DNA of 26,741 nucleotides from the NCBI GenBank assembly GCA_029259155.1, contig JAPDJI010000043.1:1-26741 (forward strand), in the 5' to 3' direction. Position 1 is the stretch's first letter; each line of letters begins with the position of its first letter. A program made the translations under genes and the position numbers. This document shows positions 6,345 to 21,402 of this stretch, piece by piece. The notes below the pieces were generated by a model that did no database searches, had not been told where the DNA came from, and saw only the letters and a list, made by a program, of their open reading frames with translations. The stretch is from Candidatus Methanomethylicia archaeon. Lineage in GTDB: Archaea; Thermoproteota; Methanomethylicia; Nezhaarchaeales; B40-G2.

Positions 6345-6382
6345 AAGAGTAGGGTTTTAAGTCTCCACGCCTTGAGTGAGGT

Positions 6383-7069
6383 GTGAGGCCTATAGTCATA
6401 GCTCATAGAGGAGCCTCTGCCTATCGGCCTGAAAACACGGTTGAAGCTATTTTGAAGGCGGTGGAGCTTGGAGCTAACGCGGTGGAAGTGGACGTTAGAC
6501 GCAGTAGGGATGGGGAGCTTGTGGTTATCCACGACGAATCCCTGCGGAGGGTAGCTGGGTTAAACGTCAAGGTATCTGAGCTGAGCTATGAGCAGCTTAG
6601 AAAGGTTAGGTTGAAGGAGGGTGGCTGGATACCGACTCTCCCCGAGGTGATAGAGATTACTAGGGGTAAGGCTGCCTTAGTGGTGGAGGCCAAGGAGGAA
6701 GGTTTTGAACATGAACTGGTAGGTCTTCTTCAAGGGCTCGAAGGGGTTACGGTGACCTCCTTCATCCACCGCTCGGTCAAGAAGGTAAAGGAGCTAGCTA
6801 AGCAACTGGAGACCGGGGTTATCTATACCTGTCTGCCGGTGAAGGTTGTAGACCTCGCGTTGGACGCTGAGGCAGACGCGATTTTTCCTAGGAGGGATTT
6901 CACAACGGTGGAGGTTGTTGAGGAGGCTCATAGACATGGGTTGAAGGTTTACCCTTGGACTGTAGACGATGTCGACGAGGCTGTATGCTTAGCGAAGCTA
7001 GGGGTGGACGGCTTAGTTACCAATAGGCCGGACGTTGTACTTGAAGCTTTGAGGAGGGCTGGTTTATGA
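6383..7069 (+). CDS. Glycerophosphodiester phosphodiesterase (GDPD family)
   Basis: IAHRGAS, PENT, VEVDV, VVIHD, WTVDD and GLVTNRP motifs; GTG start with GAGG. Confidence 0.93.
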   Translation: MRPIVIAHRGASAYRPENTVEAILKAVELGANAVEVDVRRSRDGELVVIHDESLRRVAGLNVKVSELSYEQLRKVRLKEGGWIPTLPEVIEITRGKAALVVEAKEEGFEHELVGLLQGLEGVTVTSFIHRSVKKVKELAKQLETGVIYTCLPVKVVDLALDAEADAIFPRRDFTTVEVVEEAHRHGLKVYPWTVDDVDEAVCLAKLGVDGLVTNRPDVVLEALRRAGL

Positions 7070-7701
7070 GGCTGGAGGAGGAGAAGAGGAGGCTCAGGGA
7101 GATCATTTGGTCTGAGATGATGCGTAGAGGCGTGGCCCTACCTCCACTGCCTTGTCGAGGTAGGATCCCTAACTTCGTGGGGGCTGATGTTGCGGCCAGA
7201 AACCTCAGGCAGATAAGAGAATACTTGGAGGCTAAGGTTGTACTGGTTAACCCTGACTCTCCTCAGCTTCATGTTAGGAGGATGGCTCTTCTAGACGGTA
7301 AGACCGTGGTCATGCCGACCCCTAGGCTTAGACAAGGCTTCCTAGTCCTTGTTCCGGGTAGGATTGGTGGAACGGTGGATGAGGCCTGTACGATTAAAGG
7401 GGCCTTTAAGCATGGCTTGCGCGTAAAGGAGATGCCTGAGGTGGATTTTATCGTGGAGGGGAGTGTTGCTGTGGATTTAGAAGGCAATAGGCTCGGTAAG
7501 GGCGGAGGCTACGGCGACGTGGAGATAGAGATGGCTAAGTCTAGGAGGCCTGACGTAAAGGTGGCGACTACTGTCCACTCGATCCAGGTGGTTGAGCGTG
7601 TACCGGCTGGTGAGAAGGATTTCAAGGTAGACTACATAGCTACTGAGAAGGAGCTTCTTGTGGCGGCTTCTTCATCTACTCGTAGAGCTCATCCAGCTTA
7701 G
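7066..7701 (+). CDS. 5-formyltetrahydrofolate cyclo-ligase family protein (archaeal/MTHFSD-like paralog subgroup)
   Basis: GRIPNFVGA, NPDSPQ, MPTPRL, GSVAVD and RLGKGGGYGD motifs. ATGA overlap with the GDPD gene. Confidence 0.88.
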   Translation: MRLEEEKRRLREIIWSEMMRRGVALPPLPCRGRIPNFVGADVAARNLRQIREYLEAKVVLVNPDSPQLHVRRMALLDGKTVVMPTPRLRQGFLVLVPGRIGGTVDEACTIKGAFKHGLRVKEMPEVDFIVEGSVAVDLEGNRLGKGGGYGDVEIEMAKSRRPDVKVATTVHSIQVVERVPAGEKDFKVDYIATEKELLVAASSSTRRAHPA

Positions 7702-7963
7702 CGTCTCCTTTAGGCCTAGTGTATAGAGCGTATAGGGTTTCAGGCTCTGCTTTTAAGCAGGCTCTACATGTTTCATCGACGTCCTCAGGATTAATCGGCT
7801 CAAGGTGAACTTCGAAGCCCAGCGACCTATAAAGATCCTCAGCTTCTCTTAACCTAGCTCCGCTCGTGGCAAACCGGTAAGTCCAGCCTTTCTCTCTTAG
7901 CTCAGCGTCTCTTCGAGGTTTAAGCTTGCAGGTCCCTTCTTCCCTCGCCATGTAATGCTCCAT
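7676..7963 (-). CDS. Small uncharacterised CxxC protein downstream of the benzoyl-CoA reductase cluster
   Basis: 95 aa (alternative start ATG 7951 with GGAG RBS). GWTYRF...RLREAEDLYRSLGFEVHLEP...CRAC...LYTRP. Co-oriented with bzdV; TTTTATAG box at 7983-7990 on the minus strand. Confidence 0.75.
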   Translation of the reverse strand: MEHYMAREEGTCKLKPRRDAELREKGWTYRFATSGARLREAEDLYRSLGFEVHLEPINPEDVDETCRACLKAEPETLYALYTRPKGDAKLDELYE

Positions 7964-7996
7964 ATCAATGATGACTGGGGGTCTATAAAACTTTTG

Positions 7997-8011
7997 TTTT
8001 TTTAAAAAAAA
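7997..8011. terminator. T7/A8 tract; oligo-U terminator after bzdV (minus strand), potentially bidirectional
   Basis: TTTTTTTAAAAAAAA 17 nt past the bzdV stop. Archaeal intrinsic terminators are oligo-U tracts. Confidence 0.6.
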
Positions 8012-8028
8012 GTTTGTTAGGAGGAGGG

Positions 8029-10554
8029 TTATTCGTATAGGTCTTCTTCGAGGCCAACGTTCATTTGAGGTAACTTGCCGTGTGTCTGTAAGTATTGCTG
8101 CAATAGTTCGCTCTCGCGTGATGTGAACATCTTAGCCTCCTCCCACATGAAGTACTTGGCTTGAGGCGTTGTCTCGATGAGTTGCAATAGTTCCTGTTTC
8201 ATGTTGGCGGTCCCCTTGATGTATATGACCTCTTTATTAGCGTCTAGTAGTTGAAGCACGCCTTCTGTTTCAGGGACAACTTCAAGGTTTTCCCTTGTGA
8301 ACTCTATCCATTTCTCTGGGGGTAGGGTTACTTGGGTGATGTAGAACCTGAGGTCGCACCTTAAGCATCGTTTAGCTTCATCTAAAGCTGCTTTATCTTC
8401 AAAGCATAGCTCAACTGGCTTAAACGTTGATCTACGTTCCTCTAAGGGTGGACGCGGTGTAGCTACCCTAGGCCAATAGCCGAATTTCTCGTCCCTCCCT
8501 AGCCATGGGCTTGGAGGCTCTGCTGGGGCTAAAGCTAAGTCTATGACGCCGTCTCCTCCTAGGTACTTATCAATGCTTGAAGCTGCTTTTCGTCCAGCGG
8601 CTATGGCCTCTATCACCGAGGCTGGCCCGGTGACAACGTCCCCTCCTGCGAAGAGGCCTTTAACGTTGGTCTCCATAGTGTCAGGCTTAACCTCTATGGT
8701 TCCTTTTCTTGAAAGCTTCAAGTTCAAGGAGCTTGGTATGAATGAGGTGTCCACTTCTTGGCCTATGGCCGGTATGACAGTTTCCACTTCAAGCAGGAAC
8801 TCTGAGCCTTTAATGGGGATTGGTCTACGTCTACCTCCAGCGTCAGGCTCGCCTAGCTCCATCTTGATGAGCTCAATACCCGTTACCTTGCCTTCGCTTC
8901 CTATGATTTTTGTGGGCGCAACGAGGAACATGAACTTCACACCTTCCTCCTCCGCTTCAGCTACCTCCATCGGGTGGGCTGGCATCTCTTTGCGCGTCCT
9001 ACGGTATGCCACTATGACCTCTTCGGCACCTAGCCGTAGAGCGGTCCTAGCACAGTCTATGGCTGTATTGCCTCCTCCTATAACCACGGTTTTACGTCCG
9101 ACCTCAACCTTATCGCCGAGGCTTACCTTCCTAAGGAACTCCAACGCAAAGATTACTCCATGTAGGTCTTCGCCCTCTATGCCTAGCTTAGCGCTACGCT
9201 GAGCTCCTGTAGCAACGAAGACAGCGTCGTACTCTTTTAGGAGCTTGGATACATCGTCTACTACCTCGCTCAGCCTTATTTCTACGCCTAATGCCTCGAT
9301 CTCCTTTATCTCAGCCTCTAGAACCTCTCTCGGCAGTCTGTACTTGGGTATAGCTAACGCTAGCATTCCTCCTGGTAGAGGCTGTGCTTCGTAGACGGTG
9401 ACTTTGTGGCCCTTCAAGGCTAAGAAGTAAGCTGCAGTCAACCCTGCTGGGCCAGCTCCCACTATGGCCACCTTCTTCCCAGTGGGGGGCATCGGTTTAA
9501 TCCTTGTCTTCCATTTATCCCCTCCGCGTTCAGCAGCGTAGCGTTTAAGCCCTCTTATGGCTATAGGCTCGTTCACCAGCCCTCTTCTACATTTATCTTC
9601 ACATGGCCTCATACATACGTAGCCTAGAACTCCGGGGAAGGGGACTTTCTCTCTGACCACGGCTAAAGCTTCGTCCGGCTTACCTTCGGCTATAAACCTA
9701 ACGTAGCGAGGGACGTCTATGCCAGCTGGACAAGTATATTTACATGGTATGAGGCTTTCTTCACGCTTAGCTGGATCTATATCCTTGTCTAGCAGCGCTC
9801 CCGTGGGGCAAACCTCGACGCAGGCGCCACAGAACTTACAGCCTGAGTCCTTTAAGGTTGGAGCGATGGTCCCTACTACAACCCTTCCATCGACGAAGGT
9901 GAAAGCCAATGCACCTACTCCTCTAACCTCTTTACAAACTCTAACGCAACGCGTACACCCTATGCATAGGTTATAGTCTCTCAGGAAGAGAGGTTCGTCC
10001 TTAACGACCGGGAGCCCTTCGAAGGTATACTTAGGAGTCTCAGGCGAGATGCCTACGTAGTCTGCTACTTTGCCTAGCTCACATCTGCCTAAGAGTATGC
10101 AGCATCTTTCATCTTGGGGCACGTTGAGCGTGCACCTTAACCTATCACAGCCTTCACGGTTAGTGCAGGTTAAACAAGCGTGAGGATGTGTAGCCAGTAT
10201 TTTAGCTAGGTTCTTTCGCCTAGCTTCGATGATTTCAGGGGTATTGGTGTACACCACCATTCCTTCAGAGACCTGGGTATTACAAGCCCTAACAAGCTCG
10301 CTTACTCCCTCTACCTTTACTAAACAGAGCTGGCACCCCTCATACTCCTTACCTGCCTCCCCCTTTACTTCCTGGCCATCCCTATAGACTACTTCAGAGG
10401 AAAGCATAGATCCGCTTACGGGAGGTAGATCGGGATGGTAACATAGGTGTGGTATGTATATGCCTGCGTTAAGAGCTGCTTGGAGGATGGTTTGTCCGGG
10501 TAGGGCTTCTACTTCAACACCGTCTATAATAATTTTAATTTTTTCTTCAGACAT
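8029..10554 (-). CDS. bzdV: BzdV-like multi-Fe-S FAD/NAD(P)H oxidoreductase (NuoG/HydA-like Fe-S N-terminus fused to a GltD-like domain)
   Basis: [2Fe-2S] ligands HLC...GCQLC...RAC; His-ligated cluster HPHACLTC; 2x[4Fe-4S] CIGCTRCVRVC and CKFCGACVEVCP. GltD Cys motifs PCKYTCP and VCMRPCEDKC; FAD site GAGPAG; NAD(P) site GGGNTA...YRR. Follows bzdNOPQM as in the Azoarcus bzd cluster. Confidence 0.8.
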   Translation of the reverse strand: MSEEKIKIIIDGVEVEALPGQTILQAALNAGIYIPHLCYHPDLPPVSGSMLSSEVVYRDGQEVKGEAGKEYEGCQLCLVKVEGVSELVRACNTQVSEGMVVYTNTPEIIEARRKNLAKILATHPHACLTCTNREGCDRLRCTLNVPQDERCCILLGRCELGKVADYVGISPETPKYTFEGLPVVKDEPLFLRDYNLCIGCTRCVRVCKEVRGVGALAFTFVDGRVVVGTIAPTLKDSGCKFCGACVEVCPTGALLDKDIDPAKREESLIPCKYTCPAGIDVPRYVRFIAEGKPDEALAVVREKVPFPGVLGYVCMRPCEDKCRRGLVNEPIAIRGLKRYAAERGGDKWKTRIKPMPPTGKKVAIVGAGPAGLTAAYFLALKGHKVTVYEAQPLPGGMLALAIPKYRLPREVLEAEIKEIEALGVEIRLSEVVDDVSKLLKEYDAVFVATGAQRSAKLGIEGEDLHGVIFALEFLRKVSLGDKVEVGRKTVVIGGGNTAIDCARTALRLGAEEVIVAYRRTRKEMPAHPMEVAEAEEEGVKFMFLVAPTKIIGSEGKVTGIELIKMELGEPDAGGRRRPIPIKGSEFLLEVETVIPAIGQEVDTSFIPSSLNLKLSRKGTIEVKPDTMETNVKGLFAGGDVVTGPASVIEAIAAGRKAASSIDKYLGGDGVIDLALAPAEPPSPWLGRDEKFGYWPRVATPRPPLEERRSTFKPVELCFEDKAALDEAKRCLRCDLRFYITQVTLPPEKWIEFTRENLEVVPETEGVLQLLDANKEVIYIKGTANMKQELLQLIETTPQAKYFMWEEAKMFTSRESELLQQYLQTHGKLPQMNVGLEEDLYE

Positions 10555-10603
10555 GCAAACACCTACCTACGAAATGGTTGAGGGTAATCATACGAACTTG
10601 AAA

Positions 10604-10619
10604 TAAAAAATCGGGGAGG
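10604..10619 (-). terminator. Putative internal U-tract terminator after bzdM
   Basis: Minus strand CCTCCCCGATTTTTTA, 2 nt after the stop codon. Confidence 0.45.
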
Positions 10620-10621
10620 TT

Positions 10622-10906
10622 TTACCAGCTATGTTCTATGGCTTCTTTAGGGCATGCAGCGATGCAGGGAGGTGTGACTTGTTTGCCTACAGGTTTACAG
10701 GGGCCGCAGGTGTACTTTAACTTCCAGCGATGCTCCTCCTTGACCGCAGCCATCATGCCTCCCTCAATGTCGTAGTCGTTAGGGACCACTTCCAGCACTC
10801 CTTGGGGACATGCTTCGACGCACTTGCCGCATCCATCGCACTTGTCGGTGTCAATTATTATGAAGTAGGCCCCCGATCCATCTCTGTAGCCGTAGTGAGC
10901 TTTCAT
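10622..10906 (-). CDS. bzdM: 2x[4Fe-4S] ferredoxin of the benzoyl-CoA reductase system
   Basis: CDGCGKCVEACP plus CGPC-x10-CIAACP. N-terminal YGYRDGSGxYFIxIDTDKC is typical of BzdM-type ferredoxins; immediately after bzdQ. Confidence 0.88.
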   Translation of the reverse strand: MKAHYGYRDGSGAYFIIIDTDKCDGCGKCVEACPQGVLEVVPNDYDIEGGMMAAVKEEHRWKLKYTCGPCKPVGKQVTPPCIAACPKEAIEHSW

Positions 10907-10917
10907 GGTTTACCCGC

Positions 10918-11808
10918 TCACGCTTTCCTCTCACGCTCGTATAGCGCCTTAGCGAAGAGGGCCGCTCCTATAGCTCCCGCTGCCACCGGGTCGTATCCTG
11001 GCTTAGTGGGGTTAGGCAAAGGTTGTAGTCCTAGTAGCCTCGACACTCTCGTTACGATACCTATGTTCTTTGACTGTCCTCCGGTTACTACTAGGTCTTT
11101 CTCGACGCCTAGCCTTTCAAGGAGCTCGACCATTCTCATAGCCATGGCTATGTGGTAAGCAGCAGCTACTCTTTCCTTAGGCCACCCCTGCCTTAGTAGG
11201 GCGGTAGCCTCGTTCCTAGCAAACACTACGCATGTGTTGCTGACCGGTGGAGGCTCCTCTTTTACGCTTAGTGAGAGGTGCCCTATATCCTGGATGGGTA
11301 CGCCGAGCAGGTCTGAGAAGACCTCCATCCCACGTCCTGTACCAGCAGCGCATTTATCGTTCATTAGGAAGGATATTACCTTGCCCTTCTCGTCGCACCT
11401 GATGGCCTTAACGTCCTGCCCTCCTACATCTAAGATTGTTCTAACAGAAGATCCCCATAGGAAGTTGGCGCCTCTGGCGTGACAGGCTATCTCTGTTATT
11501 GCTCTCTTAGCGAAGGGCACGTTTACTCTACCGTACCCTGTACCGACCACGTAGTGTATGTCTTCAAGCTTCATCCCTGTGGCCTCTAGGATCCAGCTAA
11601 TGGCCTTAATGGCGCTGTCTGAACTGCTGGACCCTGTCCTCATGTAGTCATAGGCATAGATTTCCCCATCTACGAGTATGGCTGCCTTGGAGCTAACGGA
11701 GCCTACGTCCACGCCGGCAGTTATCACCTTCCCCTTGGTCCAGTCTATGTCGGGGTTCACCCACCTATACTCAGGCCACCTCCAATACTCCTTCTTCTCC
11801 TCAGACAT
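10918..11808 (-). CDS. bzdQ: Benzoyl-CoA reductase, bzd-type, ATPase subunit Q
   Basis: ASKHA ATPase GVDVGSVSSKA, GTGYGR, TEIACHARG, DVGGQD, NDKCAAGTG and NTCVVFA. Trp-rich N-terminal extension YWRWPE is characteristic of BzdQ. Confidence 0.92.
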   Translation of the reverse strand: MSEEKKEYWRWPEYRWVNPDIDWTKGKVITAGVDVGSVSSKAAILVDGEIYAYDYMRTGSSSSDSAIKAISWILEATGMKLEDIHYVVGTGYGRVNVPFAKRAITEIACHARGANFLWGSSVRTILDVGGQDVKAIRCDEKGKVISFLMNDKCAAGTGRGMEVFSDLLGVPIQDIGHLSLSVKEEPPPVSNTCVVFARNEATALLRQGWPKERVAAAYHIAMAMRMVELLERLGVEKDLVVTGGQSKNIGIVTRVSRLLGLQPLPNPTKPGYDPVAAGAIGAALFAKALYERERKA

Positions 11809-11842
11809 TTAACCACCTCCCATGAGCTTAAGGAAGGATGGG

Positions 11843-11858
11843 TAAAAAATCAAGGAGG
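11843..11858 (-). terminator. Putative internal U-tract terminator after bzdP
   Basis: Minus strand CCTCCTTGATTTTTTA, 7 nt after the stop; 14/16 identical to the element after bzdM. Confidence 0.45.
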
Positions 11859-11865
11859 CTATCAC

Positions 11866-12648
11866 CTACTCCTTCTTAGCTGCTAGCAGGGCGGCTCCAA
11901 GGGCTCCTACGTACTCGGGCTCCGGCGGCACGACGATGTCGGTGGCCAGCTCCTTCTTCAAGGCCTCGACGAACGCCACGTTCTTGGCGACGCCGCCTAT
12001 CAACACTACGTCCTTCTCGATGCCCACCCTCCTGACCATGGAGGCGATCCTGGCGGCCATGGAGTCAGTTATGGCCTTGGCTATGTCCTCCTTCGGCGTG
12101 CGCTCGTGGATGAGCGTGACCACCTCGCTCTCAGCGAACACGGTGCACTGGGCGTTCATGGGTATGGTCCTCGTGGACTTTAGGGCCAGCGGCCCCATGT
12201 CTTCGAGCCTGACCTCTAGGGCCCTCGCCATGGCCTCGACGAAGGTCCCAGCGCCGGCGGCGCACCTCTCGTTGATCACGAAGTCCTTGACCGCGCCCTT
12301 CTCGTCGCACCTCAGGGCCCTGCCCTCCTCGGCGCCCACGTCGATGACAGTGCGGGCAGCTGGGTGGACGGACACAGCCCCCATGGCGGCGGCGGTGACC
12401 TCAGTGACCTCGCGGTCGGCTGAGATGGGGGGCTCAAGGCATACCTTCCTGCCTACGCCTGTGGCCACTAGGCCTGCTAGGTCCTTGCGCGAGATCCCCG
12501 CCTGCTTCAAGGCGGCGTTGAGCGCCTCCTCGGCGGACTGCTTCTGCTCGAAGCCGGTGATGGTTATTGCCTTGGCCAGCACCTTGGAGCCGTCCATTAT
12601 CACCGCCTTAACCGTCCTCGCGCCGAGGTCTATCCCAGCCGTAACCAT
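11866..12648 (-). CDS. bzdP: Benzoyl-CoA reductase, bzd-type, ATPase subunit P
   Basis: GIDLGARTVK, ATGVGR, DVGAEEGRA (AEE variant typical of the P subunit), NERCAAGAG and NAQCTVFAESE; located between O and Q. Confidence 0.88.
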   Translation of the reverse strand: MVTAGIDLGARTVKAVIMDGSKVLAKAITITGFEQKQSAEEALNAALKQAGISRKDLAGLVATGVGRKVCLEPPISADREVTEVTAAAMGAVSVHPAARTVIDVGAEEGRALRCDEKGAVKDFVINERCAAGAGTFVEAMARALEVRLEDMGPLALKSTRTIPMNAQCTVFAESEVVTLIHERTPKEDIAKAITDSMAARIASMVRRVGIEKDVVLIGGVAKNVAFVEALKKELATDIVVPPEPEYVGALGAALLAAKKE

Positions 12649-12661
12649 CCCATCTCACCCC

Positions 12662-14026
12662 CTACTCCTTCTTTATCTTGGATAAGCCCAAGCTCTCCAT
12701 GAACATGTCGAACCTCGCCAGCGTCCTGGGCATGTCGAACTCCCTCTCATCACCCATGTTACCCTCGAACGCCATGACTGGTATGCCTGCCCTCAGGATG
12801 TCCAAGCGGTTTTGAGTTATGTGTACCGATAACCCTTCACATCCTCGGTTGTAGTGTAGCGCGACGCCGTCGAGCTTCCATTGCTTAGCTATCTTGATGA
12901 TGAGCTCGCTCTTCACCCTTGGATTGAAGAAGTGAGGCCACTCAGGTTTGTTTAACATCCACTCCGCGTACATGCGTACGGCTGTTTCTCTATCTTTAAG
13001 CGCACTCTTTGGAGGCACCGTCTTGGGCCCTAATGAGCCGTCTTCCTTAACCTCCCACATCCCTATGAGGCCGAAGGTGTAAAGTGAGCCCACCGATACG
13101 CATCCGTATTCGCGCTCTAGGTAGCGGAAGATGGATAGGAAGCCCCATGGAGGCTGGGTATCGGTTATGATCCTACATCTCTCGTGTGCACACGCTGCTA
13201 TGCCTCTGCGGACCCTGTCTTTAACTTCGGCCAAGAGCTTTTCATAGAAGTCTACGCACTCCTTCTTATGCTTCATCAAGGTGCCAAGCACGTATAGCGA
13301 GTACATGCTTTTCTCGTCGAGCGGGGCTGGAACGTTAGCGTTCCAGACGCAGATCTCGGCCCATAGGCTGGTGGAGCGCATCTCATTGTATATGGCGTCT
13401 ATCATCTTCTTATCGTCGAAGCGCCTACCGGTAACCTTCTCCAGCCACTCTATGCCGTCTAAGAGCTGCCTAGTCACGTACTCTAGGCGCCAGTCGGTTA
13501 GCTCGTCGTGTAGGTTGGGTATGTGTGAACCTACCGATACGTCGATGCAGTACATAGGTATGTCCTTGCCCTTCACCTTCTTCTCGATCTCTCGGAGTAC
13601 TTGATACCACTTGGCGTGGCTGCAGCATATATGGTCCTGCCATATGAAGTCGGGGGTGGGGAACCCCTTAACTATCCTCCCGTCGGCTAAGATGTATTCA
13701 TCTCGTAGAGCAGATCCCCAGTAGTTGCGCATGTAGGCACAAAGGTCACGTGCGTAGCCAGCTGCCTCGCTGGCTTCCTGGCACTTCATGGCGAACTCCT
13801 TGAAGAAGGCGATGGTTGCTCCGTAGGGCTCGCTTGTGATGCAGTAAACGTCGTCCCCTAAGCCGTCAGGTATAGCGCTGAAGCTCCAAGCTCCTCCAGC
13901 CCACCTAATAGCTCCCTTCTCATGGGCGGTTAGGTAGTCCTCGTAGTACTTTCTCCTGAGAGCTTTTGCCTCATCCCAGCACTTAAGGGGTTCTGTTGGG
14001 TAATCAGGTATATCTTTCCTAACCAT
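12662..14026 (-). CDS. bzdO: Benzoyl-CoA reductase, bzd-type, subunit O (HgdA/B family)
   Basis: YPTEPLKCW N-terminus, SEPYGA, RDLCAYMRNYWG, HICCSHAKWYQ, HYNRGCEG and FEGNMGDEREFD. Confidence 0.92.
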   Translation of the reverse strand: MVRKDIPDYPTEPLKCWDEAKALRRKYYEDYLTAHEKGAIRWAGGAWSFSAIPDGLGDDVYCITSEPYGATIAFFKEFAMKCQEASEAAGYARDLCAYMRNYWGSALRDEYILADGRIVKGFPTPDFIWQDHICCSHAKWYQVLREIEKKVKGKDIPMYCIDVSVGSHIPNLHDELTDWRLEYVTRQLLDGIEWLEKVTGRRFDDKKMIDAIYNEMRSTSLWAEICVWNANVPAPLDEKSMYSLYVLGTLMKHKKECVDFYEKLLAEVKDRVRRGIAACAHERCRIITDTQPPWGFLSIFRYLEREYGCVSVGSLYTFGLIGMWEVKEDGSLGPKTVPPKSALKDRETAVRMYAEWMLNKPEWPHFFNPRVKSELIIKIAKQWKLDGVALHYNRGCEGLSVHITQNRLDILRAGIPVMAFEGNMGDEREFDMPRTLARFDMFMESLGLSKIKKE

Positions 14027-14046
14027 TCACGACCACCTCCATAAAC

Positions 14047-15222
14047 TTAAAACAATTCTTCGATCCCTCCTAGGGCTTCGAAGAAAGCTTCTACTCTAGT
14101 CCTAAACTGGCCCCAAGGCACCGTTACGTCGAGCTCGAGGAAGTACATCGATATTCCCATGTCCCTAAGCGCGTTCCTCACCGCTACAACGTCAAGCTCA
14201 TGTGGGTCGCAGTACTTGTACTGTAGGTATAGGGCTCCTTGGACGTTCCATTCCTTGGCTAGCCTCTTTATGTGTTCAAGCCTCCATCTTTCAGGCCAGT
14301 CCTTAGCTGGGCAAGGTATCCTCTTCAGGATGTAGCGCTCAGCTAGAGCCATCATCCTATCAGGCTTTTCAGGTACATCGCCCCAGAAGTACCTCATCCC
14401 CGTACACTGGTCGTCTACGACCACGGTGGAGCCTAGGTCCTCGACTTTATGAATGAAATCTACGTGGTCGTTGAGGCTGCTAAGTGTCATTAGCCTGAAC
14501 CCTGTTTGACGGTCAAGCTTCCTGTCTGGTAGGAGCTTGAGCAGCTGCTCGAGTTTATCTACGTACTCTCTTTTATCGCTGTACATAGCGGCTAGCACGG
14601 TGTAGAGGGCTTCGGTGCCTGTTATCGGTGGGTTGTCGCGCTTCCTATACTCGTAAAGCTGGTTTAAGAGCTGGCGTGTCTTGTTCATTAGCTTGATGCC
14701 TTTATCGATGTCAGCGTCGCTCAGCGTCTTGCCGATCCATTTCTCCACCGCTTTCTTGAACTCGGCTATCTCAGCAGCCATGTAGGGGACGGCTGGCGGA
14801 TTTTGGACGCCGTGGGGGACGTAAATGTAATGCATGAACTCGTAGTCCTTGCCTCTATCCTCCTTCATGAACAGCCTCCATGCATTGTAGGCCTGCCTCA
14901 TGTGGATGCAGGACTGGCCTATACATATGCCGTCGAGGTAGTCGTAGAGCCCTATGAAGCCTTGGGCACAGCAGTCTCGGCAGAGGGGGCAGAACATGGA
15001 GTAAATGTAGGGCTCGACAAAGCTCATGCCTTCTAGGGAGTGCCCTGGAGCTACCCTTACGGGAAGTATGTTGTCGGCTGCATAGAAGATCTCCTCCGGA
15101 GTATAGGTGCAGAAGTACCCTACAACCTTGCCGTTGGTTCGTTCCTTCCAAGCCTTAGCGTACTCGTGTCGCTTTTCTACTATGTCCTTGAACTCGGCCA
15201 AAATATCCTCTACATTAACCAT
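14047..15222 (-). CDS. bzdN: Benzoyl-CoA reductase, bzd-type, subunit N (HgdA/B family)
   Basis: RHEYAKAWKERT, GYFCTYTPEE, MFCPLCRDC, DDQCTGMRYF, CPAKDWPER, KYCDPHELD and GQFRTRVEAF; GGAGGAGTGG RBS. Confidence 0.92.
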   Translation of the reverse strand: MVNVEDILAEFKDIVEKRHEYAKAWKERTNGKVVGYFCTYTPEEIFYAADNILPVRVAPGHSLEGMSFVEPYIYSMFCPLCRDCCAQGFIGLYDYLDGICIGQSCIHMRQAYNAWRLFMKEDRGKDYEFMHYIYVPHGVQNPPAVPYMAAEIAEFKKAVEKWIGKTLSDADIDKGIKLMNKTRQLLNQLYEYRKRDNPPITGTEALYTVLAAMYSDKREYVDKLEQLLKLLPDRKLDRQTGFRLMTLSSLNDHVDFIHKVEDLGSTVVVDDQCTGMRYFWGDVPEKPDRMMALAERYILKRIPCPAKDWPERWRLEHIKRLAKEWNVQGALYLQYKYCDPHELDVVAVRNALRDMGISMYFLELDVTVPWGQFRTRVEAFFEALGGIEELF

Positions 15223-15265
15223 GGACCACTCCTCCCATAGCCCAAATGCCCAAGCTCCTTTAGCC

Positions 15266-15273
15266 TATATAAG
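15266..15273 (-). promoter_or_regulatory. Putative TATA box of the bzdN operon
   Basis: CTTATATA on the minus strand preceded by A-rich CAAAATT, about 45 nt upstream of the bzdN ATG. Confidence 0.55.
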
Positions 15274-15290
15274 AATTTTGAATGTACTGT

Positions 15291-15306
15291 TTATAGAGCT
15301 CTATAA
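15291..15306. promoter_or_regulatory. Perfect 16-bp palindrome, candidate transcription-factor site in the divergent promoter region
   Basis: TTATAGAGCTCTATAA is its own reverse complement. Confidence 0.5.
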
Positions 15307-15383
15307 CTCGCATCGAGAGGTGAAGCCAGTTTTAAAGATTCCACCTAAAAGGTTCTATTTCTAATTACTTGGCTTAGAGAGGC

Positions 15384-15400
15384 AAAGAAAAGTTATAAGT
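15384..15400 (+). promoter_or_regulatory. Putative BRE/TATA promoter of the dehydrogenase operon
   Basis: AAAGAAAAG followed by TTATAAGT, 35 nt upstream of ATG 15436; AGGTG RBS. Confidence 0.6.
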
Positions 15401-15435
15401 AAACACGACTCCTACCAACTTATAGGTGCTTTGGG

Positions 15436-16452
15436 ATGAAAGCTGCCGTGTTTTATGGCCCTAATCAGCCCTTAAAGGTCGAGGAGTACCCTACACCTAA
15501 GGTTGGACCTGGAGAAGCTTTAGTGAAGGTAGCTGCTTGCGGTGTATGCCACACCGACATGCATTACTTGAAGGGTGTCCCTACATTTAAGAAGCCACCT
15601 ATGATCCTCGGCCACGAGATCTCAGGTACCGTGGCTGAGGTAGGTGAAGGAGTGACAGCGGTAAAGCCCGGTGACCGGGTGCTAGTACCTGCCATACTCC
15701 CATGCGGCAGGTGCTACTACTGTAGAATTGGGAGAGAGAACATTTGCCTCAACTTGTTGATGGTGGGGAACCACGTCGATGGCGGCTATGCTGAGTACAT
15801 AAAGGTGCCCGCTAAGGACCTCATACCGCTGCCAAGCGAAATTCCTCTTCAGGAAGGCGCTATCATAGCAGACGCTATCACAAGCCCTTACGCCGCCGTG
15901 GTTCGCAGGGCAGAGCTTAAGCCAGGTGAAACTGTGGCGGTGTGGGGCGCTACAGGAGGCTTAGGCCTTAACGTCGTGCAGATTGCAAGTGCTCTAGGAG
16001 GCAAGGTTATAGCGCTTGGGCGGAGGGAAGAAAACCTGAAGCTCGCGAAGGAGCTTGGAGCATGGGAGACCATAAACCTCAAGGAGGACAAGGAGCCTGT
16101 AAGGACCGTTAGGAGACTTACCGGAGGAGGCGCAGACGTGGCATTTGATGTTACCGGTGTACCTCAAGTAATAGAGCAGGCCTTTGAGAGCATTAAGCAA
16201 GGAGGAAGGTTTATCGTTGTTGGCTACTCCGATAAACCCATTACCATCAACGCCGGCAGGATAATGTTCAGGGAGCTGGAGATAAGGGGAGTCATGGGCT
16301 GTAGGCCCATCGATTACTACGGAGCAATAGAGCTTGTAAGGTCAGGCAAGATAAGGCTGCTTGTCTCGCATAAGCTTCCTTTAGAGCAGATAAATGAAGC
16401 CTTTAAGCTCCTCGAGGAAGGCAAGGTCACGAGGGCTATCGTAACTCCATAG
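15436..16452 (+). CDS. Zn-dependent MDR alcohol dehydrogenase; probable 6-hydroxycyclohex-1-ene-1-carbonyl-CoA dehydrogenase (Had/BzdX-like)
   Basis: CGVCHTD, LGHEISG, structural Zn CGRCYYC...C, IADAITSPY, RIMFRE and MGCRP. The specific function is inferred from context. Confidence 0.7.
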   Translation: MKAAVFYGPNQPLKVEEYPTPKVGPGEALVKVAACGVCHTDMHYLKGVPTFKKPPMILGHEISGTVAEVGEGVTAVKPGDRVLVPAILPCGRCYYCRIGRENICLNLLMVGNHVDGGYAEYIKVPAKDLIPLPSEIPLQEGAIIADAITSPYAAVVRRAELKPGETVAVWGATGGLGLNVVQIASALGGKVIALGRREENLKLAKELGAWETINLKEDKEPVRTVRRLTGGGADVAFDVTGVPQVIEQAFESIKQGGRFIVVGYSDKPITINAGRIMFRELEIRGVMGCRPIDYYGAIELVRSGKIRLLVSHKLPLEQINEAFKLLEEGKVTRAIVTP

Positions 16453-16520
16453 TTCTGCTCCTCTTTTTTGTTGATTGATTAAGTAAGCCTTATAAGAGCT
16501 GTTGTTGCTAGCTTAGCTCG

Positions 16521-17414
16521 GTGGAGGTTATGGTATTGAAGGTGGAGGACGTAAAGAACGTGACCGTTATAGGCTTCGGCGTAATGGGAACAGGAATAGC
16601 ACAGGTGTTCGCTCAAGCAGGCTATAATGTGGTGGCTAGAGATGTTTCAGAAGATTACCTTAAGAGAGGCTTGGAGATCATCAAGAATGGCCCCTTCGGC
16701 CTGTATAAAGCGGTGGAGAAAGGTAGGTTGAAGAAGGAGGAGGCTGACGCTGCGTTGGCTAGGATTAAAATCACCACTAGCCTAGATGAGGCAGCTAAGG
16801 ATGCTGACGTAGTGGTTGAGGCTATCTTCGAGAACTTGGACCTCAAGAAGCAGCTGTTTAAGGACCTCGATGAAAAATGCCCTGAACACACAGTATTGGC
16901 TAGCAATACCTCTACGCTGAGCATTACTGCTCTTGGAGGAGCCACTAAAAGACCTGACCGTGTAGTAGGGATGCACTTCTTCAACCCTGTCCCAGTGATG
17001 AAGCTTGTAGAAGTGATAAAGGGCATAGCTTCCTCTGATGAAACCGTCCAGCTCATAAAGGATCTTTCAGTGAAGCTTGGGAAGACGCCAGTGGTAGTTA
17101 AGGACGTACCAGGATTTATAGCCAATAGACTCGCTTTACCCTACTTAGCTGAAGCCATGAGGGCCTATGAGCAAGGAATCGCCTCGGCTGAAGACATAGA
17201 CACAGCTATGAAGTTAGGTTACAACATGCCTATGGGCCCACTGGAGCTTCTAGACCTCATAGGGCTTGATACCACCCTCGACGTACTGGAGTCGATCTAT
17301 AGGGAAACCAACGATCCTAAGTATGCTCCACCTGTAATCCTGAAACAGATGGTAAGGGCTGGCTGGACAGGGCGTAAGAGTGGACGAGGTTTCTACGACT
17401 ACACGAAGAAGTAG
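16521..17414 (+). CDS. hbd: 3-hydroxyacyl-CoA (3-hydroxybutyryl-CoA) dehydrogenase
   Basis: VIGFGVMGTGIAQ, EAIFE, ASNTSTLSIT, GMHFFNPVP, PGFIANR, PMGPLEL and GRKSGRGFYDY. True start is probably 16530 or 16536, because GGAGG lies at 16523-16527. Confidence 0.92.
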   Translation: MEVMVLKVEDVKNVTVIGFGVMGTGIAQVFAQAGYNVVARDVSEDYLKRGLEIIKNGPFGLYKAVEKGRLKKEEADAALARIKITTSLDEAAKDADVVVEAIFENLDLKKQLFKDLDEKCPEHTVLASNTSTLSITALGGATKRPDRVVGMHFFNPVPVMKLVEVIKGIASSDETVQLIKDLSVKLGKTPVVVKDVPGFIANRLALPYLAEAMRAYEQGIASAEDIDTAMKLGYNMPMGPLELLDLIGLDTTLDVLESIYRETNDPKYAPPVILKQMVRAGWTGRKSGRGFYDYTKK

Positions 17415-17431
17415 GTTGAGGAAGCAGTGCC

Positions 17432-18214
17432 TTGAACTACTCTAACATTCTCTATGAGAAGAAAGGCCCGGTAGCGTGGATAACGCTGAATCGCCCTCAA
17501 GTACTTAATGCCCTCAACCCCGCCACCTTCCTAGAACTTGAGGGTGCTTTTAAGGAAGCCGAAGCTGACCCGGAGGTTAAGGTAGTGGTGGTGACGGGAG
17601 CGGGGGGGAAGGCCTTCTGCGCAGGCCTAGATTTGAAGGAAATAGTGGATAAAAGCCCTATGGAGGCGAGGGAGCTTTCAAGGCTGGGACATAGGGTCTT
17701 CAAGCTAATTGAAAACCTCTCAAAGCCGGTCATAGCAGCGGTCAATGGCTACGCATTAGGTGGAGGGATGGAGCTTTCCCTAAGCTGCGACCTCGTCATA
17801 GCTTCGGAGGACGCTATCTTCAGCCAGGCGGAGGTTAACGTAGGTGTAACCCCAGGATGGGGGGCTACTCAGAGGCTTTGGAGGATGGTCGGGGTAAGGA
17901 AGGCTAAGGAACTTGTCCTTACCGGAGACCGTATCACAGCGGTGGAGGCTGAAAAGATAGGTCTCGTAAATAAAGTGGTTCCTCCCGATAAGCTCAAGGA
18001 AGAGGCCGAAGCCTTAGCGCTTAAACTAGCTGAGAAGAGCCCAGTGGTGCTGAGGATAGCTAAAGAACAAGTAAACCAAAGCCTAGAAAACACGCTTTCG
18101 GCGGGACTTGATTACGAGGCTGAGCTTTGGAGCCTCCTCTTCTCAACCTACGATGCACGCGAGGGCGTCAAGGCGTTTCTAGAAAAACGTAAACCTTCCT
18201 ATAAAGGAGAATAA
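17432..18214 (+). CDS. Enoyl-CoA hydratase (crotonase family, Crt-like)
   Basis: LNRPQVLNAL, AFCAGLDL, GGGMEL and QAEVNVG (both catalytic Glu present), EGVKAFLEKRKP. Confidence 0.92.
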   Translation: MNYSNILYEKKGPVAWITLNRPQVLNALNPATFLELEGAFKEAEADPEVKVVVVTGAGGKAFCAGLDLKEIVDKSPMEARELSRLGHRVFKLIENLSKPVIAAVNGYALGGGMELSLSCDLVIASEDAIFSQAEVNVGVTPGWGATQRLWRMVGVRKAKELVLTGDRITAVEAEKIGLVNKVVPPDKLKEEAEALALKLAEKSPVVLRIAKEQVNQSLENTLSAGLDYEAELWSLLFSTYDAREGVKAFLEKRKPSYKGE

Positions 18215-18216
18215 CC

Positions 18217-19008
18217 TTAACCACCTTTCGCTTTTTCCTTAGCTATCAACGCTGCTCCTAAGGCTCCTACTATCTGCGGCTCTTCAGGTATTATTACACT
18301 CCTCCCTAGCTTTTCCTCTAAGGCTTTTACAAAGCCTATATTCTTGGCTACGCCTCCCGTCATCACTACGTCGTCCTCTACCCCGATGTTCATAGCCAGG
18401 CTGTATATCCTGCTCGCCATAGCTTCGTGGATGCCTGCTATGATGTCCTCCTTAGGTAGACCCTTAGCTATCAGTCCAACGACTTCGCTCTCAGCGAACA
18501 CTGTGCATGTACTGCTTATATGTACCTTAACCTTCGACTTGAGGGAAAGCCTACCTAGGTCTTCAAGCCCTACTTCTAAGGCTTGAGCCATGACCTCTAG
18601 AAACCTACCTGTACCGGCAGCGCACTTTTCATTCATGACGAAGTTTAGGACCCTCCCCCCCTCACCCACCTTTATTACCTTACTGTCCTGTCCACCTACA
18701 TCTATTACTGTCCTTACCTTAGGATACTGTTTAAAGGCCCCCCTCGCGTGGCAGGAGATTTCTGTGACCGTGGTGTTGGCATAGGGTACGATAGCTCTTC
18801 CATACCCAGTGGCTACGGTAAACGCTACCTCCGCCTTGTTTACGCCGGCCTCCTTTAGAACCCGCTCGAACACCTTGAGGGAGGCTTCACGGCTATTAGC
18901 CCCAGTCTTCATAATGTGATAGCTTACCACTCTTTCCTCCTCGTCTATGAGGAGGGCTTTGGTAGTTAAGGAACCTACATCCACGCCTAGAAACAACTTG
19001 CTAGGCAT
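18217..19008 (-). CDS. Stand-alone CoA-substrate-specific enzyme activase (HgdC/BcrA-BadF-type ATPase)
   Basis: GVDVGSLTTKA, ATGYGR, TEISCHARG, DVGGQDSK, NEKCAAGTG, STCTVFAESE and TGGVAKN. Confidence 0.92.
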   Translation of the reverse strand: MPSKLFLGVDVGSLTTKALLIDEEERVVSYHIMKTGANSREASLKVFERVLKEAGVNKAEVAFTVATGYGRAIVPYANTTVTEISCHARGAFKQYPKVRTVIDVGGQDSKVIKVGEGGRVLNFVMNEKCAAGTGRFLEVMAQALEVGLEDLGRLSLKSKVKVHISSTCTVFAESEVVGLIAKGLPKEDIIAGIHEAMASRIYSLAMNIGVEDDVVMTGGVAKNIGFVKALEEKLGRSVIIPEEPQIVGALGAALIAKEKAKGG

Positions 19009-19107
19009 TGTACCGGTCGCTGGGTTTATGATGCCTCTTCCCGATAAAGCTTCTCCCTCTGGCAGCTAAAGCTTAAGTTTAGGCAATACTCTAGCCTATG
19101 GGCATCT

Positions 19108-19596
19108 ATGGACATGCTGAAGATTCTAGCCGTCTTCCTACTTGCTGCTGCGCCTATATCGGAGGTTAGGGGGGCCATACCTTACGGAGTGTGGGTTGGC
19201 TTAAACCCTTTAACCGTCTTTTTCGTAGCGGTGGTGGGTAACATAGCACCTGTTCTCCCTCTTCTCTTACTGCTTGGTAGTTTAGAGGCCATGCTTTCAA
19301 GGTTTGTTGAGTCTGGTAAAGGTCCAAGGCTATTTCTGAAAACGGCTAAGCTATACTTTAACTACGCTAAGAGAGCTAGGGATAGGGTGAGGCCTTTTGT
19401 AAACAAGTATGGAGCGTTGGGCTTAGCCATATTTACAGCTATCCCCTTTCCTCTCACAGGTGCTTGGACTTCAGTGTTGGCGGCTCATGTTTTAGGTATG
19501 GATAGGAAGGTGGCTTTACTTTCCATATCGTTAGGTGTAACAACAGCTGGCGTCGTAGTTTCGGTATTGATAGGGATCGTTACGCTAAGCATATAG
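19108..19596 (+). CDS. Putative small multidrug export family membrane protein
   Basis: PISEVRGAIP and AIPFPLTGAWT family motifs; hydrophobic. Confidence 0.85.
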   Translation: MDMLKILAVFLLAAAPISEVRGAIPYGVWVGLNPLTVFFVAVVGNIAPVLPLLLLLGSLEAMLSRFVESGKGPRLFLKTAKLYFNYAKRARDRVRPFVNKYGALGLAIFTAIPFPLTGAWTSVLAAHVLGMDRKVALLSISLGVTTAGVVVSVLIGIVTLSI

Positions 19597-20316
19597 TGCT
19601 AGGCGCAACTTATCTTCGCTTTCCTTAACTGTCCTTAGATGCTCGACGATTCCTTGTAGCTTCTCCACCACCTGGTTAGCGTTAGCCAGTAGAATGTCGG
19701 TCTTTACTTTCAGCCCTAGAAGACTATTGAGGGCTTGTAGAAGGGCAGCTGCAGCCTCCACATCCGGTTTAGACACATCTGCCTGGACAAAGAGGCAGAC
19801 ACCTTTAACCCTCCTCACTAAACACTCATTCATGATAGCTCCGCTTATCCCCGCCACCACTCCCGCATTAAGCGGCTTGATGCCTCTCTTCTCGAGCTCA
19901 TCTACGTCTTCAGCAGCTCCATAGGCCAACCGCTCTCCACGCTCTCCACTGGCAGGTACTCCTTCTAGGCAAACGATCATGTAAACGCCTTTACTTTCAG
20001 CCCAGTTTACGATGGAGGAGGCTACATCGTAATAGGCGATGCTGGGCACTAGTGTCTCAGCTATCAACACGGCTAGCTTCCTGGCTCGCTTAATGTGAAC
20101 CCTAAAAGGGTGTTGAAGCCTCCCTTCATAGAACATGGAAATGGGAGGTAGCAGCCTAGACCTTAAATAAGCGACCTCTTCCATTTTAAGGTACCCTGCC
20201 AGATACTTTGCCGCTATGCTTCCAACCAAACCTGGGCCGGGGAAACCGCAGACCAGCTTACCTCCTTCTAGATCTATCTTCTCTAGCTCCACTATTTCTC
20301 CGTGGAGGACTCTCAA
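19585..20316 (-). CDS. PAC2-family proteasome assembly chaperone homolog (PbaA/PbaB-like)
   Basis: GFPGPGLVGSIA, PFRVH, GISGAIM and PDVEAAA; C-terminal LYA is an HbYX motif. Confidence 0.88.
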   Translation of the reverse strand: MRVLHGEIVELEKIDLEGGKLVCGFPGPGLVGSIAAKYLAGYLKMEEVAYLRSRLLPPISMFYEGRLQHPFRVHIKRARKLAVLIAETLVPSIAYYDVASSIVNWAESKGVYMIVCLEGVPASGERGERLAYGAAEDVDELEKRGIKPLNAGVVAGISGAIMNECLVRRVKGVCLFVQADVSKPDVEAAAALLQALNSLLGLKVKTDILLANANQVVEKLQGIVEHLRTVKESEDKLRLALYA

Positions 20317-20535
20317 GGCTTACACCGCCCCTGTAGTTGGGATGTGGAAACTTAAAAATTCATGTGGAGAGCTAAGGTTTCTCTTTTAGTTAACCTCTAC
20401 TTCAAGCCTCCTTCATCGAAGGTTTTTCGTGCTCCCACCTTTAGCTTAGCATAATTAACATGACTTTTAAGTCCTTAGGTTGTTGTGGCGGAAGCTTTAA
20501 GTCTATATGCTAGGTCTTTGAGGCGGTGCCTGGCG

Positions 20536-21003: not shown

Positions 21004-21011
21004 AATTAAAG

Positions 21012-21344: not shown

Positions 21345-21402
21345 GCTATCCCCCCTTACACTAATTATTTAGCACCCTGTCCTAAACTTTAGCTACGAGA
21401 AC

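Follow-up and report, generated by a model that had tools for sequence, protein, structure and literature searches.

The 26,741-nt contig JAPDJI010000043.1 of assembly GCA_029259155.1 (Candidatus Methanomethylicia archaeon), which was analysed over its whole length and is called the window here, carries on its minus strand a group of genes whose predicted products resemble the Bzd-type reductase of benzoyl-CoA (BCR), which is of class I, together with its activating ATPases and electron carriers. The explanation that fits best overall, to which a probability of about 0.75 is given from sequence comparison, is an intact Bzd-type BCR cassette in a member of the Nezhaarchaeales without Mcr, with the product of the reductase probably being handled by non-canonical enzymes. 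What is new is the host order for a known system, and the non-canonical downstream trio of enzymes is the most interesting lead. The window is the whole of contig C17 in a bin of 1.55 Mb and 47 contigs that is 94% complete and 2.6% contaminated; genomes, loci and families are given as coded G, L and f numbers, the window's own genome being G000.

The reductase and its electron supply

The BzdO subunit (12662–14026, minus strand), which is predicted to hold the active site with an aqua-[4Fe-4S] cluster and the benzoyl-CoA site, passes the NCBI Bzd equivalog model with 599.3 bits (TIGR03191, cut-off 448.6), and BzdN (14047–15222, minus strand), the putative [8Fe-9S] double-cubane subunit of the catalytic dimer, has the Bzd model as its best family with 382.7 bits (TIGR03190, cut-off 453.8), the next family scoring 176. 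Models of the 2-hydroxyacyl-CoA dehydratase (HAD) type were weak (HadB 127 vs BzdO 599; HadC 146 vs BzdN 383), as were the Bcr-type models of Thauera (BcrB 42 and BcrC 87.4 bits) and the double-cubane model (33 bits). Among the structures of the PDB, the BzdNO dimer of Aromatoleum sp. CIB (8s02) was matched with 553.5 bits by BzdO (8s02_A) and 370.6 bits by BzdN (8s02_B, E 7.9e-110), while 2-hydroxyisocaproyl-CoA dehydratase (3o3m) matched the O and N subunits at only 99 and 123 bits and the 3-methylbenzoyl-CoA reductase subunits MbdO and MbdN at only 29.5 and 83.8 bits. On these family-model and PDB scores the N and O subunits are assigned to Bzd, as the preliminary description of this DNA had supposed, and not to the 2-hydroxyacyl-CoA dehydratases or to Bcr.

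The residues named for the solved Aromatoleum BzdO (PMC11971306) were mapped by hand from printed HMMER alignments, and 15 of the 16 named active-site residues are kept in the BzdO of the window, including the cluster cysteines C95, C128 and C380, the proposed acid-base pair E65/H131, and A45, W46, Y97, Q124, Q274, Y298, L302, E381, G382 and L383. In BzdN, the residues R53, R267, R290, H330 and S239 of the solved protein correspond to R56, R277, R301, H341 and S249 here, Q324 corresponds to Y335, and seven cysteines are kept, against six Cys ligands in the solved protein. Sequence-level support for a putative dearomatising benzoyl-CoA reductase is strong.

Two different ATPase genes and a ferredoxin gene are encoded with the catalytic pair. 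The bzdP-like ATPase (11866–12648, minus strand; TIGR00241 231 bits, PF01869 179.5) and the BzdQ ATPase (10918–11808, minus strand), which narrowly passes its NCBI equivalog model (TIGR03192, 386.2 vs a cut-off of 380.2), are predicted to be the two halves of the electron-activating heterodimer, and a BzdM-like 2x[4Fe-4S] ferredoxin of 94 aa (10622–10906, minus strand; Fer4 dicluster families) is the presumed electron donor. The bzdP gene is an outlier in composition, with a GC content of 0.646 and a GC content at third codon positions (GC3) of 0.854 against GC3 values of 0.49–0.67 in its operon neighbours, the rise being limited to the open reading frame (ORF); in none of the 16 other loci checked was bzdP richer in GC3 than its neighbours. 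Since the related genome from which locus L002 comes has a GC3 of ~0.85 throughout, allelic replacement of bzdP alone from a GC-rich relative is suggested, and because a contig of an independent run (X2) spans the bzdP region, the outlier is not an assembly chimera.

Next to the ferredoxin gene lies the gene for an 841-aa NfnB/GltD-type Fe-S flavoprotein (8029–10554, minus strand), a presumed NAD(P)H:ferredoxin oxidoreductase whose Pfam modules comprise an N-terminal [2Fe-2S] and NuoG/HydA-type Fe-S region, an NfnB/GltD-type FAD/NAD(P)H region (Fer4_20 and Pyr_redox_2) and a C-terminal DUF7508. This protein scored 504.4 with PRK12771 (cut-off 516), and its residues 269–738 matched the NfnB-like modules of 9bov_A, 8oh5_C and 9n5u_A ('NfnA') at 458–499 bits. 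It is presumed to be BzdV-like from its domain architecture and linkage; in Azoarcus, BzdM is a ferredoxin and BzdV a putative NADPH:ferredoxin oxidoreductase (PMC5658619).

The seven minus-strand genes at 7676–15222 are separated by gaps of 11–67 nt (11–57 nt from bzdN to the ferredoxin gene), which suggests a single operon, and a gap of 213 nt lies between bzdN and the divergent genes for a Zn-dependent alcohol dehydrogenase (ADH), Hbd and a crotonase. All genes named in the preliminary description, and the bzdN-O-P-Q-M/bzdV-like order that it gave, were recovered in place, a 95-aa ORF and a third ATPase gene being additions to it. The order N-O-P-Q, then ferredoxin, then an NAD(P)H-type oxidoreductase is shared with Aromatoleum (Azoarcus) sp. 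CIB, and the likeness to BzdNO of that strain (structures 8s02, 8s1t and 8s2r; PMC11971306) extends to the three cysteines that ligate the cluster, to Glu65 and His131, and to the residues that bind the thioester and the ring. The window differs from that system in having Gly for Ser44 of BzdO and Tyr for Gln324 of BzdN, in a BzdN that scores under the equivalog cut-off, in an archaeal host from hydrothermal and sediment habitats as against a denitrifying bacterium, and in an oxidoreductase gene that directly follows the ferredoxin gene. In Azoarcus, bzdS, bzdT and bzdU lie between the ferredoxin and oxidoreductase genes, and the operon continues with bzdWXY (Dch, Had, Oah) and bzdA.

In a scan of 185,579 species genomes, a relative of BzdO was encoded in 566 stretches. 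The 80 best of these were kept as loci, and the cassette was counted in those 46 that extend at least 1.3 kb upstream and at least 6 kb downstream of BzdO. The N, P and Q subunits and the ferredoxin were found in 45 of these 46 loci, with the position of P held and the ferredoxin placed after bzdQ in 45; the 841-aa gene follows the ferredoxin gene in 41, and N, P, Q, ferredoxin and the 841-aa gene stand in this order in 40. By record title, the cassette hosts include Bathyarchaeia (20 loci), Promethearchaeota, Heimdallarchaeota, Thermoplasmata, Aminicenantes, Planctomycetota, Gemmatimonadota, Ignavibacteriota and others. Close homologues are named 'benzoyl-CoA reductase, bzd-type, subunit O' in public records of Bathyarchaeota and Thermoplasmatota metagenome-assembled genomes (MAGs), and Bzd-type clusters have been described in Loki-, Thor- and Heimdallarchaeota (10.1101/763623), in Hermodarchaeota with BzdV, ferredoxin, Dch and Had (PMC8163825), and in Thermoplasmata and Bathyarchaeota (PMC6472368). 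Since the same cassette occurs in many archaeal and bacterial MAGs and in published clusters, the kind of system is already known. The clusters of uncultured archaea share with the window the six-gene cassette, a BzdO 60–70% identical and strictly anaerobic hosts with Wood-Ljungdahl genes (10.1101/763623, PMC8163825, PMC6472368); the window differs from them in its host order, Nezhaarchaeales, and in downstream genes that are non-canonical and dispersed in its genome.

The tblastn search of BzdO against plasmids gave only HAD-family proteins at 21–23% identity in eight records, and no reference bzd cluster. To our knowledge, the class I BCR of Ferroglobus placidus is the only archaeal case with physiology, and the Dch, Had and Oah of this organism have been characterised. 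It resembles the host of the window in being an archaeon with a class I BCR and the Wood-Ljungdahl pathway (PMC5736913, PMC6472368), and differs in being an iron-respiring member of the Archaeoglobi, in another phylum.

Downstream enzymes and routes into benzoyl-CoA

Divergently from bzdN, the plus strand of the window encodes a 'type 2' Zn-alcohol dehydrogenase (ADH2; 15436–16452) that is a proposed stand-in for Had, an Hbd-type 3-hydroxyacyl-CoA dehydrogenase (16521–17414; PF02737, PF00725; PRK05808 389.8, cut-off 408) and a short-chain enoyl-CoA hydratase of the crotonase type (17432–18214; PF00378 263 bits; PRK05809 309.9, cut-off 394; TIGR03189 85.6), the latter two being candidates for the lower pathway. 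The canonical enzymes that act after ring reduction in the pathway were below their curated cut-offs in all five Bzd-bearing genomes of the order, the best scores being 178.4 against 292.5 for Dch (TIGR03189), 239.2 against 338.65 for Had (TIGR03201) and 151 against 464.45 for Oah (TIGR03200). The divergent ADH, called Had-like in the preliminary description, reached 235.2 with TIGR03201 and does not pass for a canonical Had, and the search of G000 for dch and oah gave nothing at the curated cut-offs (best 170.3 and 144.2, respectively).

Three proteins of the window genome resemble the missing enzymes in kind. The first is a 256-aa Dch-like crotonase on contig C20, which is 48–55% identical to the crotonase encoded divergently from bzdN in Bathyarchaeia and has homologues in 23 of the 80 loci. 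The second is ADH2. It shows 38% identity with the canonical Had encoded in L010, L018 and L077, and homologues of it (49–89% identical) stand beside the cassettes in 12 of 80 loci, none of which has the canonical Had too. The third is a 331-aa crotonase on contig C9, which matches MenB, BadI and Oah about equally (156–166 bits), scores 156.5 with TIGR03200 by hmmscan and aligns with canonical Oah over 311 residues at 28% identity; it is 42–54% identical to crotonases of 319–347 aa beside the cassettes in L010, L052, L059, L067, L073 and L080. Counted over the 80 loci, such an Oah-like crotonase lies beside the cassette in six, none of the six with a canonical Oah. Canonical Had (465–470 bits) and Oah (529–555 bits) adjoin the cassette in L010, L018 and L077, which ties the cassette family to the benzoyl-CoA pathway. 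Like the canonical set (TIGR03189, TIGR03201 and TIGR03200, equal to BzdW/X/Y), the trio comprises a hydratase of the crotonase family, a Zn-ADH and a hydrolase, likewise of crotonase type, that is extended at its C-terminus. Unlike that set, all of its members fall under the curated cut-offs, and in none of the 80 loci do both ADH types, or both Oah types, co-occur.

The same pattern was observed when whole genomes were searched. Neither G189 nor the genomes behind L012, L059, L080 and L066 yielded a canonical Oah, and in each of these five the best Oah-like match was an ORF of 330–358 aa at 138–179 bits, similar to the score of the C9 protein, the match in G189 being confirmed as a 54%-identical homologue of it; canonical Oah is present in the genomes of L042, G243 and G263. 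Orthologues of the Oah-like and Dch-like proteins occur in all five Bzd-bearing genomes of the order, and of ADH2 in four of them, whereas the ten genomes of family f3 contained no orthologue of the trio, only paralogues at most 47% identical. On one contig of G003, 10.6 kb separate the Ech-Hbd-ADH2-bzdN block from genes for the Oah-like protein, a thiolase, a DUF35 protein and an F420-type oxidoreductase. This arrangement points to C9 lying after C17 in the window genome; a comparison of the right end of C17 with all contig starts gave no sequence overlap, the adjacency of C17 and C9 being based on the G003 synteny only.

Of 401 genomes sampled evenly across the phylum, seven pass BzdO at E <= 1e-120, in addition to a split copy in G001, and these positives are too few for co-occurrence statistics with the Oah-like gene. 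The Oah-like protein (E <= 1e-70) was detected in 11 of the 401 genomes, six of them BzdO-positive and five belonging to f18, another Thermoproteota family, without BzdO; in four of the five f18 genomes, the Oah-like gene lies 7–8.5 kb from a BCR/HAD-family gene. At locus L109 (G335:C2:63000-82500), the one of these f18 loci that was read gene by gene, the genes for the Oah-like protein, ADH2 and the Dch-like protein are directly adjacent, their products being 51%, 54% and 41% identical, respectively, to those of the window genome. The reductase beside this trio has BcrC (267.8), BcrB (307.6) and BcrD (160.6) as its best families, all below cut-off, and L109 is possibly an undescribed archaeal Bcr-like dearomatisation cluster. 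The trio is thereby linked to two different class I reductase types, which is the best evidence that it may act on the product of ring reduction. The locus also holds a tungsten-AOR-like gene, two ORFs (302 and 246 aa, without an NCBIfam match) and one recognised activase.

Candidates for the source of benzoyl-CoA were found on two other contigs of the bin. Contig C12 (L099, 3094–12689) carries a second BCR/HAD-family pair of 371 and 416 aa, whose best families are double-cubane (259 bits) and HadB (213 bits), followed by an acyl-CoA ligase and the indolepyruvate:ferredoxin oxidoreductase IorAB, and an aromatic-acid-type transporter of the major facilitator superfamily (MFS) lies upstream of the pair, with a 521-aa ORF between. 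The cluster looks like one for aromatic amino-acid fermentation, and a paralogue of its 416-aa subunit that matches TIGR03191 is present in the other four Bzd-bearing genomes and in six of the ten f3 genomes. Contig C20 (L097, 5217–11916) encodes, two genes from the Dch-like crotonase, a molybdenum hydroxylase with an FAD subunit, for which the best family is the 4-hydroxybenzoyl-CoA reductase alpha subunit (TIGR03194, 640.5 < 994.55), and a peripheral route into benzoyl-CoA is possible. Of the five Bzd-bearing genomes, only G000 and G001 have the third ATPase of the window at this position. It is an HgdC/BzdQ-like activase (18217–19008, minus strand; TIGR00241 285.8 bits) of uncertain relation to the Bzd system, and a possible partner for it is the HAD-like pair on C12, near which no activase is encoded.

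Host, distribution and contig integrity

The host belongs to the Nezhaarchaeales (Thermoproteota), lacks Mcr and comes from hydrothermal and sediment habitats. Locus L002, titled Ca. Nezhaarchaeales archaeon, has a BzdO 90% identical to that of the window and is collinear with it over ~20 kb through pfkB, LysX, the whole bzd block, aKMT, CutA, RtcB and phosphoglycolate phosphatase, at a nucleotide identity of 67–76% and with RtcB proteins 83–85% identical; its BzdO row is identical to that of G002, which shares the family code f1 of the window. The same arrangement of the locus was observed in G001 and G003, so that three other genomes of the family show the synteny including the housekeeping flanks. 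A Thermoproteota, Nezhaarchaeales-like host, and not one of the Archaeoglobi, had been anticipated, and the shared family code and the synteny with L002 bear this out. The wider expectation that anaerobic aromatic metabolism is extended to a new group holds at the level of the order, and not beyond it, the cassette being present in the 20 Bathyarchaeia loci, in Asgard archaea and in Thermoplasmata, with archaeal clusters already published. No paper tying Nezhaarchaeales to benzoyl-CoA was found in the literature, where the supplementary tables of the MAG papers, which were beyond reach, may list bzd genes.

The BzdO subunit is over the cut-off in G000, G002, G003 and G004 and is split over two contig ends in G001, giving five of five genomes of families f1 and f2, whereas none of the ten f3 genomes (with only a paralogue of 63–92 bits) and none of the 46 other genomes of the class searched contained it. 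The McrA protein was found in none of the five Bzd-bearing genomes, which are 92–98% complete, and in four of the ten genomes of the Bzd-free sister family f3; Nezhaarchaeia have been described as predicted hydrogenotrophic methanogens with the Wood-Ljungdahl pathway, MCR and MTR (PMC9723716, PMC9635834). The coupling of aromatic degradation to methanogenesis, which had been raised as a possibility, is therefore not borne out in these genomes. A Wood-Ljungdahl pathway that could serve as partner is present, with CdhC in five of five Bzd-bearing genomes and the methenyl-tetrahydromethanopterin cyclohydrolase MCH and [NiFe] hydrogenases in four of four each; the idea of such a coupling is not new, since a class I BCR with acetogenic oxidation or the Wood-Ljungdahl pathway has been proposed for Chloroflexi and for 12 seep MAGs (PMC5736913, PMC6472368). 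The organism is probably fermentative or acetogenic. In G000, cdhC is split across the contig ends C32:7800-8501 (model positions 2–231) and C4:93559-94278 (233–460), so that C32 and C4 are probably neighbours.

A quick maximum-likelihood tree was built from 84 BzdO rows and rooted on the HAD-like paralogue of the window genome itself, L079 being left out for a stop in its tblastn match. The BzdO of the window groups with those of the f1 genomes with a support of 99 in the Shimodaira-Hasegawa-like approximate likelihood-ratio test (SH-aLRT), and the f1 group is sister to G004 together with 20 Bathyarchaeia rows (SH-aLRT 95). The next row to join is an unclassified Thermoproteota one (99), and the neighbouring clade is Asgard (90). 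A constraint of f1 and G004 as one clade, defined by taxonomy and tested after the tree had been seen, was rejected on a 34-row subset (ΔlnL 59.8, p-AU 0.001 in the approximately unbiased test), indicating at least two Bzd histories in the order, within a Thermoproteota-wide clade. The cassette was probably already in the common ancestor of the host's family, and its BzdO lies within the Thermoproteota clade.

The tetranucleotide correlation of C17 to the rest of the bin is 0.982, the other contigs of at least 27 kb (C1–C16) showing 0.94–0.99, and the value for the core at 8029–15222 (r 0.86) is lower than that for the flanks (0.98). With the best-matching run excluded as the possible source, at least half of the sampled words were recovered in each of five DNA runs of five studies, all with the label of a hydrothermal vent, sediment or marine sediment metagenome. 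Contigs from four independent public runs cover the whole of the stretch compared at 95% likeness or more, and independent contigs bridge 8023–20642 (run X2) and 15612–25400 (run X3); composition together with these covering and bridging contigs argues against misbinning or a chimera. In run X3, the two ends of a 16,042-nt contig correspond to window 5508–8008 and 8023–8709 and enclose 12,854 letters of other sequence, and contigs of X2 and X5 break at the same A/G-rich spot, 8008–8023. This may be an artefact of the assembly graph, or strain variation in which 12.9 kb are inserted between the 95-aa ORF and the gene for the 841-aa protein. At the intergenic position 20433, between the PAC2 and methyltransferase genes, all four compared runs have one base fewer, which may reflect a fixed indel or a wrong consensus in the window.

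The flanks consist of archaeal housekeeping genes, namely LysX (TIGR02144, 335.5 > 275.6), RtcB, PAC2, CutA and archaeal phosphoglycolate phosphatase, together with an aKMT-like methyltransferase (171, under the cut-off of 200) and a 1033-aa helicase. The operon ends with the conserved 95-aa ORF (7676–7963, minus strand), which overlaps the 3' end of a 5-formyl-tetrahydrofolate cyclo-ligase gene by 26 nt and for which no Pfam family, even at E up to 5, and no NCBIfam family was found, the Atlas giving 'hypothetical' clusters only. Its homologues (37–56% identical by tblastn) occur in nine of the 80 Bzd loci, archaeal as well as bacterial; in L002 and L010, the loci read for gene order here, they come directly 3' of the gene for the 841-aa protein, and weaker ones stand upstream of the cassette in two Asgard loci. 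Scans of the window for tRNAs and Rfam families gave no match, and the 1.3 kb at 783–2099 are without an ORF of at least 80 aa, a tRNA, an Rfam match or notable repeats.

Alternative readings and implications

Several observations weigh against the explanation that is preferred overall. The N subunit stays under its NCBI cut-off, and Ser44 of BzdO, the sole change among the 16 residues mapped by hand, is Gly here and invariantly so in an alignment of 22 MAG homologues (A1); this Ser lies 3.6–4.0 Å from ring C3 in the solved BzdO (PMC11971306), and its replacement means that the substrate range may differ. Of the five genomes, G003 and G004 alone have a benzoate-CoA ligase over the cut-off; the window genome reaches at best 260 < 375.25. 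To the sub-threshold scores of Dch, Had and Oah in all five genomes it is added that the Oah-like protein, from its presence in five f18 genomes without BzdO, is not exclusive to Bzd, and that the sources name its family only generically. The related genomes are not independent, and the distribution over the order corresponds to one or two events. DsrA was found in none of four genomes and no other respiratory acceptor was found (others not being searched for), and a reductase that spends 2 ATP is energetically awkward in this setting. No RNA run is listed for the window stretch.

The strongest of the alternatives, though still unlikely, is that the cassette encodes a Bzd-family dearomatising reductase whose true substrate is a substituted or amino-acid-derived aryl-CoA, for example hydroxy- or methyl-benzoyl-CoA from aromatic amino-acid fermentation. 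The Gly in place of Ser44 throughout the MAG clade and the Tyr in place of Q324 in BzdN would fit such a substrate, as would IorAB, the acyl-CoA ligase and the aromatic-acid MFS-like transporter on C12, the 4-hydroxybenzoyl-CoA-reductase-like Mo enzyme near the Dch-like crotonase on C20, and a window genome without a benzoate-CoA ligase over the cut-off. However, 15 of 16 residues of the benzoyl pocket and thioester site are unchanged, MbdO, from the enzyme for 3-methylbenzoyl-CoA, matches at only 29.5 bits, and a peripheral route that ends in benzoyl-CoA fits the same genes equally.

Less probable again is that the reductase serves as an electron sink or for detoxification with no ring cleavage, the ADH, Hbd and crotonase being ordinary genes of beta-oxidation. 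The failure of Dch, Had and Oah to reach their cut-offs in the five genomes, the generic short-chain types of Hbd and the window crotonase, and the fermentative or acetogenic appearance of the organism (no McrA and no DsrA, with hydrogenases and CODH/ACS present) are in line with this, but ADH2 and the Oah-like and Dch-like proteins recur beside two BCR types in several phyla, in one row in L109, and 2 ATP per ring are costly for mere electron disposal. A 2-hydroxyacyl-CoA dehydratase or other BCR/HAD-family locus, or a misbinned or chimeric contig, is largely refuted: the Pfam level, which shows only HGD-D and BcrAD_BadFG, the foreign-looking composition of bzdP and the lower correlation of the core would allow it, but the equivalog and PDB scores favour Bzd 4- to 5-fold in bits, the operon has two different ATPase genes, the genome's own HAD-like pair on C12 is distinct (HadB 212.7, BzdO 165.4) and a far outgroup in the tree, and the synteny with its flanks recurs in three other family genomes, with independent assemblies bridging gene to flank.

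In the preferred reading, that of a Bzd-type benzoyl-CoA reductase with a non-canonical continuation, the 841-aa NfnB-type flavoprotein would reduce the 94-aa ferredoxin with NAD(P)H, and the BzdP/BzdQ heterodimer would lower the potential of the electron by ATP hydrolysis. The electron would then pass from the [8Fe-9S] cluster of BzdN to the water-bearing [4Fe-4S] cluster of BzdO, where benzoyl-CoA would be converted to cyclohexa-1,5-diene-1-carbonyl-CoA. The dienoyl-CoA would probably be processed by the Dch-like crotonase of C20, the ADH2 of the window and the 331-aa Oah-like crotonase of C9, after which Hbd, crotonase, thiolases and acyl-CoA dehydrogenases may yield acetyl-CoA, which could enter the archaeal Wood-Ljungdahl pathway and the hydrogenases.

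For the biology of the lineage, the tentative proposal, held at slightly under even odds, is that two Mcr-less families of Nezhaarchaeales are aromatic-ring degraders, and that they, together with some Asgard archaea, Bathyarchaeia, Zixibacteria, Acidobacteriota and a further Thermoproteota family, use the trio of a Dch-like crotonase, ADH2 and an Oah-like crotonase of ~310–350 aa in place of Dch, Had and Oah (BamA). With the finding, a thermophile-associated order of the TACK group, until now described as methanogenic, joins the archaea with predicted class I benzoyl-CoA reductases, and within Nezhaarchaeales Mcr and Bzd occur in different families. It would also be a further case of the energetic puzzle, noted in the literature, of an ATP-consuming ring reductase in strict anaerobes without obvious respiration. 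If the proposal is true, surveys that use bamA/oah or canonical Had models as the marker under-count anaerobic aromatic degraders.

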